From the NCBI GenBank assembly GCA_963728205.1, contig CAVSIV010000004.1, forward strand, positions 128,001 to 192,000: 64,000 bases of DNA, read 5' to 3'. Of the stretch, positions 4,688 through 9,222 are shown in pieces (position 1 is the stretch's first letter; every line of letters begins with the position of its first letter). The position numbers and the translations under genes are program-made. Origin of the DNA: an uncultured Chloroflexia bacterium (lineage in GTDB: Bacteria; Chloroflexota; Dehalococcoidia; UBA2979). The notes below the pieces were generated by a model. It saw nothing but the letters and a program-made list of their open reading frames with translations. It was not told the origin of the DNA and searched no databases.

Positions 4688-5554
4688 CTACGGCGTCGGC
4701 TGGTCGCGGTTCGTCGGGCTCGCGGTCGCCTGCAACACGACCGGACCCTCCACCGTCTGCGAGTCGCGGCTCGAGGTCGCGACGATGTAGACGCGCGCCG
4801 GCGACTGTCCGCTCTTCGTGTGCAGCAGCACCTGCGCGTTGCCCAGCGAGTCGGGCACGAAGGTGGTCGCCGCGACGAGGCCGGACGCGCCGTCCTCGAG
4901 CCAGATGCGGTAGACGTCGCCGAACGGCAGCTGGGGGAGGTCGTGCGCCACGACCACCGCGGCCCCCGCCGACGCGCTCCAGAGGTAGCGGCCCCCGGCG
5001 CCGTGGCCGTAGACGGTGGGCTCGAGGTCCATCGTCTGCACAGCCGGGTCCGTCTGGACGGCGGCAATCACCTGTTGCTCCTGTAGCGCGTTCGCGAGCT
5101 GGAGGCTGAGCGACTTCGAGCCGGTGTCGGCGTTCGAGATGCCCTCGATGGAGTCCAGCCGCTTGGCATTGGACTCGACGAGCGCGGTGAGCGTGGCGGA
5201 CTCGCTCTGCACCTGGTGCAGCGCCGAGCGCAGGCTCACGGCCCACAGCGAGACGACGAGGAGCGCCGCGGCCAGGCCGGCGACCGGGAGCAGGCTGCGC
5301 AGGCGCGGCGCGACGAAGCGGCGGCGGCGCGGCTCGCGCCGGGCCGCGGCGAGCACCCGCTCGCGCAGGTGCGGATCGGCGCGGCCGAGCGGCACGGAGA
5401 GCGCGATGAGGTCGACGAGCTCGTGGTAGGCGGCGAGATCCGCCGCGGCCTCGGCGTCCGAGGCGACGAGCGCCTCGGCGTCGGCGGCGTCCGGCGCGCT
5501 CAGCGTGCCGAGCGCGTAGCCCGCGAGGAGGTCTTCGCGTTCATCCGGCGTCAT
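4688..5554 (-). CDS. Anti-sigma factor (RskA-like)
   Basis: LLAGYALGTL N-terminus, PHLRERVLA, one TM helix, LPQLPFGDVYRIWL; overlaps the sigma gene stop. Confidence 0.8.
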   Translation of the reverse strand: MTPDEREDLLAGYALGTLSAPDAADAEALVASDAEAAADLAAYHELVDLIALSVPLGRADPHLRERVLAAARREPRRRRFVAPRLRSLLPVAGLAAALLVVSLWAVSLRSALHQVQSESATLTALVESNAKRLDSIEGISNADTGSKSLSLQLANALQEQQVIAAVQTDPAVQTMDLEPTVYGHGAGGRYLWSASAGAAVVVAHDLPQLPFGDVYRIWLEDGASGLVAATTFVPDSLGNAQVLLHTKSGQSPARVYIVATSSRDSQTVEGPVVLQATASPTNRDQPTP

Positions 5555-6303
5555 CGATCACCCCCGCCGGCCCCTGCACCCGGCCCACCCGGTTCGCGCG
5601 TCACGTCGGCGAGCAGCTCGCGCAGCTTGCGCATCCCGAGCCGTACGCGCGTCTTCACCGTTCCGAGCGGATCGCCCGTGCGCTCCGCGATCTCCGTCTG
5701 CGTGAGCCCACCGAAGTAGGCCAGCTCAAGCACGCGCCGCTGCGACGGCGGGAGGCGCGTCATCGCCTCGCGCACCGTGCGTCGAAGCTCCGCCACCGCC
5801 AGCCCCAGCTGGGGATCGCCGCTGCGGTCACCGGACGCCAGCGGTGAGGCGTCCCCGTCCTCGATCCCCTCGACCCGCCGCCGCCGCGCCGTCCGCCGCC
5901 ACTCGTCCAGCGCGCGGTTGCGCGTCACCGACATCAGCCACGTCACGAACCGCCCGCGCTCCGGGTCGAACGACGCCGGGCGACGCCACAGCCGCAGGAA
6001 CACCTCCTGCGTGACGTCCTCCGCGAGCTGCCGGTCGTGCAGCACGCGCACCCCGACCGAGAACACCAGGTTCGCGTAGCGGTCGTACACCGCTTCCAGC
6101 GCCCGCAGCTCGCCGGCGGCGACGCGCGCCATCAGCTGCTCGTCGGTCGGCGCGTCCGCGACCTGCGCAACGTCGGCAGTCGCGTCGGCCTCGTGCGGCG
6201 TCGATCGAGGTACGTCGCCGAGGCGCGCGCGGATTCCTCGCCGGTCGAGCGGGATCGGGCGGCGGTCGCCCGGGCCGGGGATGGGAGCGGGGGTCTCGGG
6301 CAC
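5551..6303 (-). CDS. ECF sigma-70 factor (SigK-like)
   Basis: AEDVTQEVFLRLWR, TRNRALD, LAYFGGLTQTEIA, GTVKTRVRLG; GTG start after GGAGG. Confidence 0.9.
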   Translation of the reverse strand: MPETPAPIPGPGDRRPIPLDRRGIRARLGDVPRSTPHEADATADVAQVADAPTDEQLMARVAAGELRALEAVYDRYANLVFSVGVRVLHDRQLAEDVTQEVFLRLWRRPASFDPERGRFVTWLMSVTRNRALDEWRRTARRRRVEGIEDGDASPLASGDRSGDPQLGLAVAELRRTVREAMTRLPPSQRRVLELAYFGGLTQTEIAERTGDPLGTVKTRVRLGMRKLRELLADVTREPGGPGAGAGGGDR

Positions 6304-6362
6304 CGCGGTCCTCCGAGAGCGTGGCCGGGGAGTGCGGTGGGCCTCGTGGATTGTACGGGGGA

Positions 6363-7193
6363 TCAGACGGGGAGACCGGTGCTGAACAGGATGCCGCGCG
6401 CCAGCACTTCCCCGGCCAGAACCGTGCCGAGCGCGATGTACAGCAGTCCGGTCGCGGACATCATGCCCCGGATGCGCGCCGCGCGCCAAGCCAGCAGCGC
6501 CAGGAACGCGGGGAAGACCAGGCCGACGGCGATGCGCAGCCAGTACGCCGGGTTCTGCGCCAGACCGACCCCGAAGCCCTCGGTCAACGGCACGTCGCGC
6601 GCCGGCAGCGCGCTGCCCACGACGACGAGCACCGCCTGCACGACGAGCGCCCCGAGCACGACGAGCGACATCTGCTCCATCGGCTCCTTCGGGAGCCGGC
6701 CGGAGGTGAGGTACCAGTGCCCCCACATCATCGCCATCAGCGCCCCGCCCAGCACGGCGGCGGAGGCGAAGATGCTCGCGAGCATCCCGGCGTACGACCA
6801 CGTCGGCGCGGCCACGAGGCCGGCGAGCGCGGCGAGCGCGACCACCCCCGCGGCGCAGCCGAGTGCCCCGGCGACGAGCGTCGCCCGGCGCCGCTCGACG
6901 AACGCGCCCAGCAGGTGCGCGACGGCGAACGCGACGAAGACGACGAGCGCGGCGCGGAACGGCCCGAGCCACCGCGGCGCGAGCACGTAGCCGTCGAGCT
7001 CGCTGCGCCCGCCGAGTCCGGCGGCGACCCACAGCGCAAGCAGCGCGAGCGGGACGATGGTGATGCCGGCGGCCTTGACGTACCCGGTCGTGACTTGGCG
7101 GCGGGCGTCGAAGACGGTGGCCATGGCGAGCGACCCGACCGCCAGCTCGACCAGCAGGATGAGCACGGCGTAGGGCAGAGAGGCGGCACTCAC
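6363..7193 (-). CDS. Uncharacterised polytopic membrane protein (GHWYL / SATGLLY motifs)
   Basis: About 8 hydrophobic segments; -10-like TACGAT 9 nt upstream of the GTG. Confidence 0.7.
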   Translation of the reverse strand: MSAASLPYAVLILLVELAVGSLAMATVFDARRQVTTGYVKAAGITIVPLALLALWVAAGLGGRSELDGYVLAPRWLGPFRAALVVFVAFAVAHLLGAFVERRRATLVAGALGCAAGVVALAALAGLVAAPTWSYAGMLASIFASAAVLGGALMAMMWGHWYLTSGRLPKEPMEQMSLVVLGALVVQAVLVVVGSALPARDVPLTEGFGVGLAQNPAYWLRIAVGLVFPAFLALLAWRAARIRGMMSATGLLYIALGTVLAGEVLARGILFSTGLPV

Positions 7194-7265
7194 GGGAGCG
7201 CAATCGTAGGGAGCGGCACCGGGAGGGGCAACGCGGCCCGCCCGGGGGGTGTCCCCATCATCCAG

Positions 7266-8477
7266 TCAAGCGGCGACGCGCGAGCGCATGGTGTGTGTTG
7301 CGTCGTAGGCGGTGCCGGACTTGAGCATCGCAAGGATCACGTCGCAGCGACGGCGAGCGAGGCAGATGACGGCGGCGTTGTGCTTCTTCCCCTGAGCGCG
7401 CTTGCGGTCGTAGAAGGCTCGGGAGGGCGGATGCCGCAGGGAGCAGAAGGCCGCGAGGAAGAGTGCATTCTTCAGCCGGTGGTTCCCCCGGCGGCTCCGC
7501 TTCTCGCCCCGGATGCTGGTACCCGACTGGCGCGTGACCGGAGCCAGTCCCGCGTAGCTCGCGAGCTGGGCGCCTGTGGCGAAGCGAGCGCCGTCACCGA
7601 TCTCGGCGAGGATCTTCGCGCCGGTCCTGGGGCCCACGCCGGGGAGCGATATCAGGACCGGCCCCAGAGGGTGGCTGCGGAAGACCTCCTCGATCTGAAC
7701 GAGGATCCGGCTGCGTCTGGCGTCGAGCCGGCCGAGTTCGGTGGCGAGCTCTGCAACGATCGGTCCAATGCGCCGCTCGCTTTGTACGGTGATCGTCTGG
7801 GCGTCGAGTGCGCTGAAGACCTCGTCCGCGAGGCGCGCGGCGACTCGGGGCGCCTGCCGCCGAAGCAGTCGCAGCACGGGACCACGGCCGGCCGCGCGGA
7901 GAGCCGACGGGGTGGGGTAGCGGGCAAGCAGCGCCCACGCCGCGGGGTGATCCAGTCGTGGACCGAGCACGGCCTCGAGTGGTGGATGCACGCTCGTGAG
8001 CATGTCGCGCAGCCGGTTCACCAGGCGGACTCGGTCCGCGGCGAGGTCATCGTCGTACCCCGAGAGGAGGCGCAGCTCCTCGAGCAGCTCGTCGCCGACG
8101 GCCAGCCAGCGCAGGTTCCCTGGGTGGGTTCGTGCGAAGTCGGCAAGGACGAAGCTGTCGCGGACGTCCGTCTTCGCCTCGCCCGGGTAGAGATCTGCGG
8201 CTCGTCGCATGACCAGCCCGGGCACGTAGGCGACAGGGACACCGATCTCTCGGCACACGGCAAGCGTCAGCGCGGCAATCGACCCCGGCTGGTCCAACAC
8301 CACTCCGGCATGCCCGATCGACGCTGCCGTCGACAGCAGCGCCTGAAGATCGGCCTGCTGATTCCGAACCGCGCGGGACGACAGCACCTCGCCGCCACCG
8401 TTGATCAGCGTTGCGTGGTGCTCGGTCTTTCCGACGTCGAGCCCAATGAACACATCGACCCGTGCCTCGGTCGGCAT
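7266..8477 (-). CDS. IS110-family DEDD recombinase/transposase
   Basis: GLDVGK, VLDQPG, AKTDVRD RuvC-like motifs; SLPGVGPRT, LASYAGLAPVTRQSG, RRGNHRLKNAL; ATG 8477 after GGAGGG. Confidence 0.95.
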   Translation of the reverse strand: MPTEARVDVFIGLDVGKTEHHATLINGGGEVLSSRAVRNQQADLQALLSTAASIGHAGVVLDQPGSIAALTLAVCREIGVPVAYVPGLVMRRAADLYPGEAKTDVRDSFVLADFARTHPGNLRWLAVGDELLEELRLLSGYDDDLAADRVRLVNRLRDMLTSVHPPLEAVLGPRLDHPAAWALLARYPTPSALRAAGRGPVLRLLRRQAPRVAARLADEVFSALDAQTITVQSERRIGPIVAELATELGRLDARRSRILVQIEEVFRSHPLGPVLISLPGVGPRTGAKILAEIGDGARFATGAQLASYAGLAPVTRQSGTSIRGEKRSRRGNHRLKNALFLAAFCSLRHPPSRAFYDRKRAQGKKHNAAVICLARRRCDVILAMLKSGTAYDATHTMRSRVAA

Positions 8478-8499
8478 GCGCCCTCCGATCGCGACCGCG

Positions 8500-8695
8500 C
8501 TTTGCGCATCCGACCGGGTGCCTCGGCCTGCATCCACCTTACGAACGAGCGCTCACGGCGCCGGTCCCCATCAGCGGTCCACGGCACCCAGCATCACCGG
8601 TGGCAACACCCCCCAGGTCCTCGAACAGACAGGGGGCAGATGAGCCATGCCGGCGACGCCGGATGTGATCACGGGCCGCGGTCAGCCCGGCGATC
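8500..8695 (-). ncRNA. Predicted IS110 bridge RNA
   Basis: Two stem-loops with internal loops whose sequences match the element's own junction and its flanking target; boundaries approximate. Confidence 0.8.
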
Positions 8696-8841
8696 GCGAA
8701 GAAGGTAAGGGGGAGGGCGGCGGAGGGCGGCGTGAGCTCTCCGGGCGGTCGCCCGTCGCGGGACGCGAGCACGAGCGCGTTTGCCGCACGCGAGCACTCT
8801 CGGCCTGCGGCGCCGGGAACGGCTGGCGCCGCCCTGCTCGC

Positions 8842-9222
8842 CTACGCCCCACGCAGCTCTTCGACGCTGACCCCGTACTGGTACACCGCCACCGGGTTGC
8901 CGTCCGGGTCGCGGAACGCGAGTGTCACGCCGCCGGGGATGTCGTGGTAGTCGCGCGTGATGGCGACGCCGGCGGCCTTCAGGCCGCGCTTCACGGCCGC
9001 GATGTCGGCGACGCGGAATCCCGGCTCCCAGCCGGCGCTCCCGCCCGCAGCGTGAATGCCGACGTCGACGTTCGCCAGGCGCACCATCGCCCACCGCGGC
9101 GAGACCGACTGCACCGTCGCACCCAGCACGTCACGGTAGAACGCCACGGCCGCGGCCACGTCTGCGGCCGGCACCTGCAGGTGGTCCAGCAGACCGATCT
9201 CGACGCGCGGCTCGTCGCTCAT
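8842..9222 (-). CDS. VOC/glyoxalase family protein
   Basis: LDHLQVPAADVAAAVAFYRDVLG and FRDPDGN. Confidence 0.85.
   Translation of the reverse strand: MSDEPRVEIGLLDHLQVPAADVAAAVAFYRDVLGATVQSVSPRWAMVRLANVDVGIHAAGGSAGWEPGFRVADIAAVKRGLKAAGVAITRDYHDIPGGVTLAFRDPDGNPVAVYQYGVSVEELRGA

Follow-up and report, generated by a model that had tools for sequence, protein, structure and literature searches.

A guide-readable bridge RNA of the IS621 kind predicted in an IS110-group insertion sequence of an uncultured Chloroflexia bacterium

An IS110-family element 1.46 kb long lies at positions 8708-7250 on the minus strand of the window, by which we mean the whole 64,000-nucleotide stretch of DNA analysed here. 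The locus raises the question of whether its long left end encodes a bridge RNA whose four guides can be read against the element's own ends and insertion sites, and of how far such guides keep to the rules described for IS621. Bridge recombinases are under development as programmable DNA-insertion tools, and each well-read natural system widens the known design space. A bridge RNA has been predicted in 85.7% of catalogued IS110 elements (Durrant et al., PMC11208160); finding one in an IS110 element is in itself expected, and the system described here, though new, is a fairly ordinary representative of the recently described bridge-recombinase family. It offers four guides, both handshake positions, a candidate split promoter, a high-G+C host, a covariance model and dozens of differently guided relatives. 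Our literature search turned up no publication dealing with this clade, with a CC core or with identical handshake guides, and published IS110 orthologue tables may include the clade.

The host genome holds a second copy of the element, 99% identical and lying between different flanks at another C-rich site. Identity between the two copies begins in the C-run and TTACC and stops at GGGGACACC, with divergent sequence outside. The ends and the adjoining target sequences, listed in the order in which they are read on the minus strand, are as follows.

8711-8717, minus strand: left target half CCCTCCC adjoining the insertion, read from the sequence; identity between the copies starts only in the C-run
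8709-8710, minus strand: left copy of the CC core, directly 5' of TTACC; the same CC follows the right end
8478-8708, minus strand: left end, 231 nt, non-coding, starting TTACCTTC and common to both copies
7250-7260, minus strand: right-end terminus and left donor site TGATGGGGACA, the last bases common to the two copies
7241-7249, minus strand: right core CC (7249-7248) and right target half CCCCGGG, read from the sequence; the copies diverge after CC

The left-end start TTACC is kept in homologues, and the right end finishes at 7250, 16 nt beyond the stop codon. The element has a long non-coding left end, a short right end and no terminal inverted repeats, and only the core is repeated at the junctions. 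Both insertion-site contexts are C-rich, reading ...CCCTCCC-CC-CCCCGGG for the window copy and ...CGGCCCC-CC-TCCCCGC for the second copy. The window insertion is intergenic, with a glyoxalase-family gene on one side and an open frame with ECF sigma-factor domains on the other. This open frame, downstream of the element (5551-7203, minus strand; 550 aa), has ECF sigma-factor domains only at residues 373-529, and the long stretch N-terminal to them may be a gene of its own or an artefact of open frames in G+C-rich sequence. Directly left of the insertion, at 8711-8730 on the minus strand, two copies of the 9-mer CCGCCCTCC stand with one base between them (CCGCCCTCC-G-CCGCCCTCC). None of the sequencing runs listed for the stretch was an RNA run. 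No circle junction, other joint or empty site was seen in contigs from four metagenome runs, which yielded short fragments only; of these fragments, three were 100% identical, measured 151-207 nt and lay inside 8292-8637, and another, a 153-nt variant, ended at 8710.

The protein encoded by the element places it in the IS110 family.

7266-8477, minus strand: transposase gene P0001, 403 aa, identified by Pfam, NCBIfam and alignment to the IS621 chain 8wt6_A

P0001 matches the Pfam families DEDD_Tnp_IS110 (PF01548, 4e-43) and Transposase_20 (PF02371, 9e-25) and scores 231 bits against the NCBIfam model NF033542, 'IS110 family RNA-guided transposase', for which the cut-off is 140. Among solved structures, phmmer matched it to IS621 (8wt6_A, 3.9e-20), mainly over the C-terminal domain, and to ISCro4 (9t56_A, 2.8e-17), over the C-terminal domain. 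In the alignment to IS621, D14, D103, D106 and the Ser of a QSG match catalytic residues, and D62 stands at the position of the Glu. Judged by this homology, P0001 is an IS110-family recombinase with a predicted N-terminal DEDD RuvC-like domain and a predicted C-terminal Tnp domain carrying the catalytic Ser. ISCro4 (PDB 9t56), the second solved IS110-family recombinase to match the C-terminal domain of P0001, is likened to it by the protein alone.

Relatives were collected by scanning one genome per species, which gave 516 encoding stretches. We kept the best 80 of the 516, whose proteins are 52-81% identical to P0001 and whose records are labelled as Chloroflexota, Dehalococcoidia, Acidimicrobiia and Thermoleophilia MAGs and as Streptomyces and other actinomycetes. 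Within the host's family, 33 of the 99 genomes searched at the DNA level gave a match, several with three copies, and eight further copies from these genomes were added, bringing the set to 99 loci, 89 of them with conserved RNA motifs used as anchors. The clade comprises at least 84 elements, in genomes labelled Chloroflexota, Acidimicrobiia, Thermoleophilia and Streptomyces.

Comparison of the left ends of these elements points to a conserved RNA with two stem-loops, predicted in the window as follows.

8504-8667, minus strand: core fold of the bridge RNA, located by covariance model R1 (143 bits)
8588-8662, minus strand: target-binding stem-loop, with basal helices 8662-8650/8600-8588 and 8647-8644/8604-8601 and a distal hairpin 8630-8628/8619-8617
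8516-8589, minus strand: donor-binding stem-loop, with a basal helix 8589-8583/8522-8516 and a distal hairpin 8562-8558/8552-8548

The left ends were aligned with MAFFT, using 73 of the 74 distinct sequences and excluding that of locus L027, in which the target-loop region is replaced by unrelated sequence. On this alignment of 73 sequences RNAalifold drew the target stem-loop, in which many pairs are compensatory, and missed the donor stem-loop because the two clades are misaligned there. A four-helix structure was then drawn by hand on the 21 closest distinct sequences, and the covariance model R1 was built from it and used to realign the rest. Across the 21 relatives, 90.6% of the 576 cells of the hand-drawn structure are paired and 11 of its 29 pairs are changed on both sides; none of 500 shuffles reached any of the five measures, and sliding the partners by 1-3 columns left 29-58% paired.

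In the host genome, R1 finds only two matches, which are the two copies of the element. Searched against 88 sources (duplicates, partial matches and L034 left out), it matches 84, with a single match in each, immediately 5' of the transposase gene; L017, L027, L032 and L069 gave no match. About 58 of these matches belong to the Streptomyces-type sister clade, which was absent from model building. The alignment derived from R1, which is fitted to the model's own structure, has 94.0% of 2134 cells paired and compensatory changes in 19 of 29 pairs, against 0 of 500 shuffles and 34-57% for slid controls; in both alignments the shuffle controls ignore relatedness. Within this 84-sequence alignment, 10 of the 17 pairs of the target basal stem are compensatory (80 distinct rows), and in the donor stem-loop all 4 of the basal pairs counted and 3 of the 5 distal pairs show compensatory changes. 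The two enclosing stems proposed in an earlier note on this DNA, 8662-8650/8600-8588 and 8589-8583/8522-8516, are present and supported by covariation, and the check that it had suggested, a covariance model from homologous ends, yielded this conserved, covarying fold.

Folding of single sequences was not decisive (z-scores of -2.5 and -1.5). In the predicted minimum-free-energy fold of the free RNA, the target loop is closed by pairing between the C-run of the left target guide and the G-run of the right one. The predicted fold of this copy also has an extra closing helix (about 8665-8661/8512-8508), whose register differs between relatives and which was not counted for covariation, and a 5' hairpin. 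An Rfam search of 7000-9000 at E up to 10 returned seven weak matches, all far below gathering scores and none relevant.

Elements of the IS1111 group share the recombinase family and the RNA-guided logic (Durrant et al., PMC11208160) but carry their bridge RNA, or seekRNA, in a long right end and have longer subterminal inverted repeats. Since the RNA here lies in a 231-nt left end and the right end measures 16 nt, the element belongs to the IS110 group and not to IS1111. We conclude that 8708-7250 (minus strand) is very probably an intact insertion sequence of the IS110 group, with a two-stem-loop bridge RNA of about 165 nt encoded in its left end.

In the layout described by Durrant et al. 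(PMC11208160), the first loop binds the target and the second the donor, with 5' sides in top-strand sense and 3' sides complementary. Read in this way, the donor loop contains two candidate guides.

8564-8573, minus strand: left donor guide UGAUGGGGAC, identical to 7260-7251; the corresponding strings of relatives match their own right ends
8535-8542, minus strand: right donor guide GUAAGG (8542-8537, including the core-pairing GG) with handshake UG (8536-8535), complementary to the joined CA-CC-TTAC

The identity of UGAUGGGGAC (8573-8564) with the right end at 7260-7251, which the earlier note had pointed out, extends over 10 of 10 positions and finishes 1 nt before the CC at 7249-7248. The same note had read GUAAGGUG (8542-8535) as the reverse complement of CACCTTAC, and all 8 of 8 positions agree. 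CACCTTAC is made up of the right end ...ACA, the CC and the left-end TTAC (8708-8705), a combination that as DNA exists only in the joined circle. Matches of this kind might arise by chance in G+C-rich, low-complexity sequence: CACCTTAC itself is expected 0.16 times per window, and occurs nowhere else in this one. The 10-mer repeat, however, is harder to obtain in that way; TGATGGGGAC is found twice in the 64-kb window against 0.08 expected, one of the two exactly at the element's end, and none of 100 shuffles contained it two or more times.

Dozens of relatives show these relations too, in different sequences, which also argues against chance. The left donor guide strings vary among relatives and equal their own right ends, as in ACGGGGACA, GATAGGGACA, ATAGAAGCAC, TAGGGGCAC and TAGAGGCACG. 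When exact matches were counted within 75 nt of the stop codon, 25 of 79 guides matched their own right ends, compared with 126 of 4956 pairings with others, a test diluted by the many Streptomyces elements whose right ends measure 150-530 nt. Anchoring right ends by the left donor guide is circular for that guide and was replaced by a guide-free anchor (TTGACN, 12-13 nt, CA and C); with it, the guide scores 6.05/8 against its own right end and 5.09 against others (19 distinct pairs; 0 of 5000 permutations). The false right-end anchor at L076 was dropped from guide-anchored counts. On the other side of the loop, the right donor guide reads GUAA-x-GUG where the left end starts x-TTAC, and x agrees in 79 of 82 loci anchored without x.

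RNAalifold draws these complementary strings as a helix between the left-end start (xTTAC) and GUAAx, with x paired as GC in 37 sequences, CG in 21 and AU in 14 and mismatched in one, so that 72 of 73 sequences are complementary. Such a helix would also suit a left end that is a mere structured mRNA leader, in which the end matches are subterminal protein-binding repeats or an RNA-RNA helix with 8542-8537; the 10-nt direct repeat at the element end could, likewise, be a transposase site. Against this, the candidate -10 described below sits on TTACCT, so a transcript from the joint would probably start downstream, and the matching strings lie in internal loops between covarying stems, at the positions that guides occupy in IS621. 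The target loop bears on the same choice, since its guides are compared with DNA that is not part of the element.

8631-8639, minus strand: candidate left target guide CUGCCCC, with CU over the core, placed by the family flank test and weak in this copy
8607-8617, minus strand: candidate right target guide CCUGGGGGG (8617-8609) with handshake UG (8608-8607); reverse complement CACCCCCCAGG, against the right junction CACCCCCCGGG

The complementarity of CCUGGGGGG (8617-8609) to CCCCCCGGG (7249-7241), with one G-U, was also part of the first reading of the window and is borne out. Across the family, the right target guide scores 6.31/8 against its own right flank, where other guides score 4.19 (36 distinct pairs from 65 loci with the guide-free anchor; 0 of 5000 permutations). 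Guides of the classes CCCCCC, ACCC, CCTTTT, CTTTTT and CCCTTT each have a matching flank beside them, and in a three-copy relative the guide has changed to read CCACCC and all three insertions read CC-ACCC. Covariation of this guide with DNA outside the element cannot be explained by an internal repeat or helix, and we consider the mRNA-leader explanation very unlikely.

The left target guide is less clear. The earlier alignment of UCUGCCCCCU (8640-8631) with GCCGCCCTCC (8721-8712) was counted correctly, at 6 identities, 2 wobbles and 2 mismatches, but this is a weak match for C-rich sequence. The register used by relatives (CUGCCCC+CU against CCCTCCC+CC) does no better in the window copy, with 5 identities and 2 wobbles of 9, and fits the second copy better, with 7 identities and 1 wobble of 9. 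Of the four predicted guides, the left target guide matches least well in the window copy, and its register in the C-run is ambiguous by 1 nt. Over 67 distinct pairs, the left target guide scores 6.18/8 against its own left flank and 5.34 against others (0 of 5000 permutations). The match is clear in guides that are not C-runs (ACUGGCC against ACTGGCC, ACCGGCC and TCTGGCC; GCGUGCCCCC against GCGTGCCCCC) and weak for C-run targets, the window copy included. A comparison of flanks across copies, another check that had been suggested, shows both target guides covarying with their flanks, the right strongly and the left more weakly but significantly. Taken alone, the match of C-run to C-run in the left target guide would be insignificant; given the repeat at the element's end and the recurrence in relatives, we regard chance as a negligible explanation for the matches as a set.

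The main reading, an IS110-family element with a guide-readable two-loop bridge RNA of the IS621 kind, is supported by comparative sequence evidence, because the protein family, the conserved covarying fold and the covariation of guides with DNA across about 90 homologous elements all point to it. In this reading, the 5' side of the donor loop, UGAUGGGGAC, has the sense of the right end and would pair with its bottom strand, and the 3' side, GUAAGG, would pair with the core CC and the left-end TTAC, to which it is complementary. The 5' side of the target loop, CUGCCCC-CU, would read in the same sense as a left half-site that is G/C-rich and closes with a C-run, and the 3' side, CCUGGGGGG, would be complementary to the core CC followed by CCCC(A/G)GG. 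After each right guide comes UG, which complements the terminal CA of the right end and would occupy the handshake position described for IS621 (Hiraizumi et al., PMC11208158).

By analogy with IS621, the element would be excised as a circle in which the right end, the CC and the left end are joined. Two candidate promoter boxes lie at the ends that this joint would bring together.

7264-7269, minus strand: TTGACT, candidate -35, overlapping the stop codon; an instance of TTGACN 16-17 nt before the core end
8702-8707, minus strand: TACCTT, candidate -10 of a putative circle-only promoter, a 3/6 match to TATAAT

TTGACN stands 16-17 nt before the core end in 39 of 42 anchored right ends, and this spacing holds both where the box overlaps the stop codon, as in the window, and where it lies 40 nt past the stop codon. 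Joining the ends places TTGACT 17 nt from TACCTT, and no sigma-70-like site was found in the integrated element. The TTGACN box fits a promoter formed only in the circle, for which the -10 candidate is weak; a split promoter of this type has been described for IS110 circles (Durrant et al., PMC11208160; Nature 2026). The joint promoter would drive the RNA and the transposase, and the DEDD/Ser recombinase held by the RNA would join the circle to a C-run at CC. Transcription, protein binding and strand chemistry are all inferred here from the IS621 precedent.

The guides also allow the core and the handshake positions to be compared with those of IS621. Both right guides end GG-UG, as had been seen in the window, and by analogy this shared ending corresponds to the handshake guides of IS621. 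The UG is present in the target loop of 84 of 84 RNAs and in the donor loop of 83 of 84; at positions 6-7 the donor has CA, and the target has CC in 74 of 80 loci. Counted in the IS621 manner, the handshake would form three pairs before exchange and three after, with no net gain, compared with one pair before top-strand exchange and three after in IS621 (Nature 2026). Handshake base pairing in this family would, on this count, be without bias towards insertion.

In IS621, the core dinucleotide is the same in donor and target and lies within all four guide pairings (PMC11208160). The window element has CC at both junctions, and its core is covered by the GG of the right guides and by the C-U that ends the left target guide, which can pair with the GG of the core bottom strand as C:G plus one wobble, U.G. 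The left donor guide of the window element finishes at donor position 6 and gives no core coverage. The earlier statement that both left guides end 1 nt before the core is, taken literally, correct here for the left donor guide and does not hold for the left target guide. In the nearest relatives the left donor guide reaches position 7, the A beside the core, and in the Streptomyces-type clade it extends into the core.

The CC core proposed for the window element likewise fits that element and does not extend to the sister clade, in which, as read from loops and junctions, donor and target have just the first C in common. The donor loop calls for one base at the second core position and the target loop for another in 57 of 83 aligned RNAs. 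We counted the bases at the core in 69 loci with both junctions anchored without any guide. CC stands at both junctions and in both loops in 23 of them, the window element and its 22 closest loci. Among the remaining 46 loci, 41 have the donor-loop base at the left junction and the target-loop base at the right junction, and the five exceptions include one mis-anchored locus and one tandem joint; the reciprocal arrangement, with the target-loop base on the left and the donor-loop base on the right, was found in none of the 69. Three sister-clade loci (L042, L055 and L067) illustrate the pattern, with CG or CA in the donor loop and CC or CT in the target loop, kept apart at the junctions.

A single common C is compatible with a top-strand cut immediately behind it, or with single-strand transfer. 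The same RNA might serve another chemistry, with one shared C and either a top-strand cut one base before that of IS621 or single-strand transfer (copy-out, paste-in), and the CC core of the window would then be a coincidence of insertion into a C-run. The disagreement of the loops at the second core position and the segregation of donor and target bases between the junctions are in keeping with this, the absence of the reciprocal arrangement runs contrary to random segregation of a 2-nt heteroduplex, and preprints report mostly single-strand excision or top-strand insertion in other IS110 elements. On the other hand, IS621 structures show a Holliday junction and cleavage after the 2-nt core (Hiraizumi et al., PMC11208158), and the window element and its 22 closest loci are all CC, which makes the models indistinguishable there. 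Copies whose left-end base no longer fitted their own guide could also have been lost or missed, and the left-end anchor presupposes TTAC. We regard this one-C chemistry as a serious possibility that stops short of being probable. A related proposal, that the clade follows altered rules in which both loops have the same UG handshake, insertion receives no push and only a single C needs to be common, we put forward tentatively and with considerable doubt; if it were true, the family would offer a natural system in which to test what sets direction and crossover position in bridge recombinases.

Returning to the main reading, the likeness to IS621 covers the DEDD and Ser recombinase, a long left end that encodes the RNA and a short right end, and two stem-loops with the target loop first and the donor loop second. 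It extends to 5' guides in top-strand sense, 3' guides complementary to the core and the right half-site, two bases at the handshake position after each of these, a promoter split over the right and left ends (a candidate here) and no duplication beyond the core. The element differs from IS621 in its protein, which is only distantly related (phmmer 3.9e-20) and has Asp in place of Glu, and in its core, CC here and CT in IS621. Its target is a C-run, which leaves about 5 nt of complementarity between the two target guides. The left donor guide goes no further than position 6, unpaired with the core, the handshake is UG in both loops where IS621 has AU and GU, and the predicted fold has the extra closing helix and 5' hairpin. 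The departures in the handshakes, in the core-avoiding left donor guide and in the disagreement of the sister-clade loops bear on the direction of the reaction and on the position at which strands cross.

Some relatives carry additional sequence or lie in composite arrangements. In many of them the right-end terminus (TTGACN...ATAGGGGCA-CC) is found 150-530 nt past the stop codon, compared with 16-58 nt otherwise, which means that these relatives carry extra right-end sequence; they are L021, L023-L025, L030, L031, L033, L035, L037, L039, L040, L044 and other Streptomyces-type loci, together with L005 and L016. Growth of IS110 elements by uptake of cargo has been reported in a 2026 preprint. 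At L066, the right end runs directly into GTTACGG, a left-end start, forming a tandem or head-to-tail joint. At L063, the right end is followed by CCCC and then by GTTATC... and a target-loop-like stretch (GGCATGACT...), the left end of another copy. In these two loci, the C-run and left-end start of one copy seem to have served as the target for another.

On another contig of the host genome (L003, 1300-1625), an intergenic array contains three to four copies of an 87-nt tandem repeat, and in one repeat unit about 55 nt are replaced by the first 41-42 nt of the element's left end. This piece is preceded by ...GGCGTACCC-CC and stops at GCGGCCCG, a string with which the next part of the repeat unit also begins. 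The arrangement resembles the scar that a third C-run insertion would leave if it were later deleted between 8-nt repeats.
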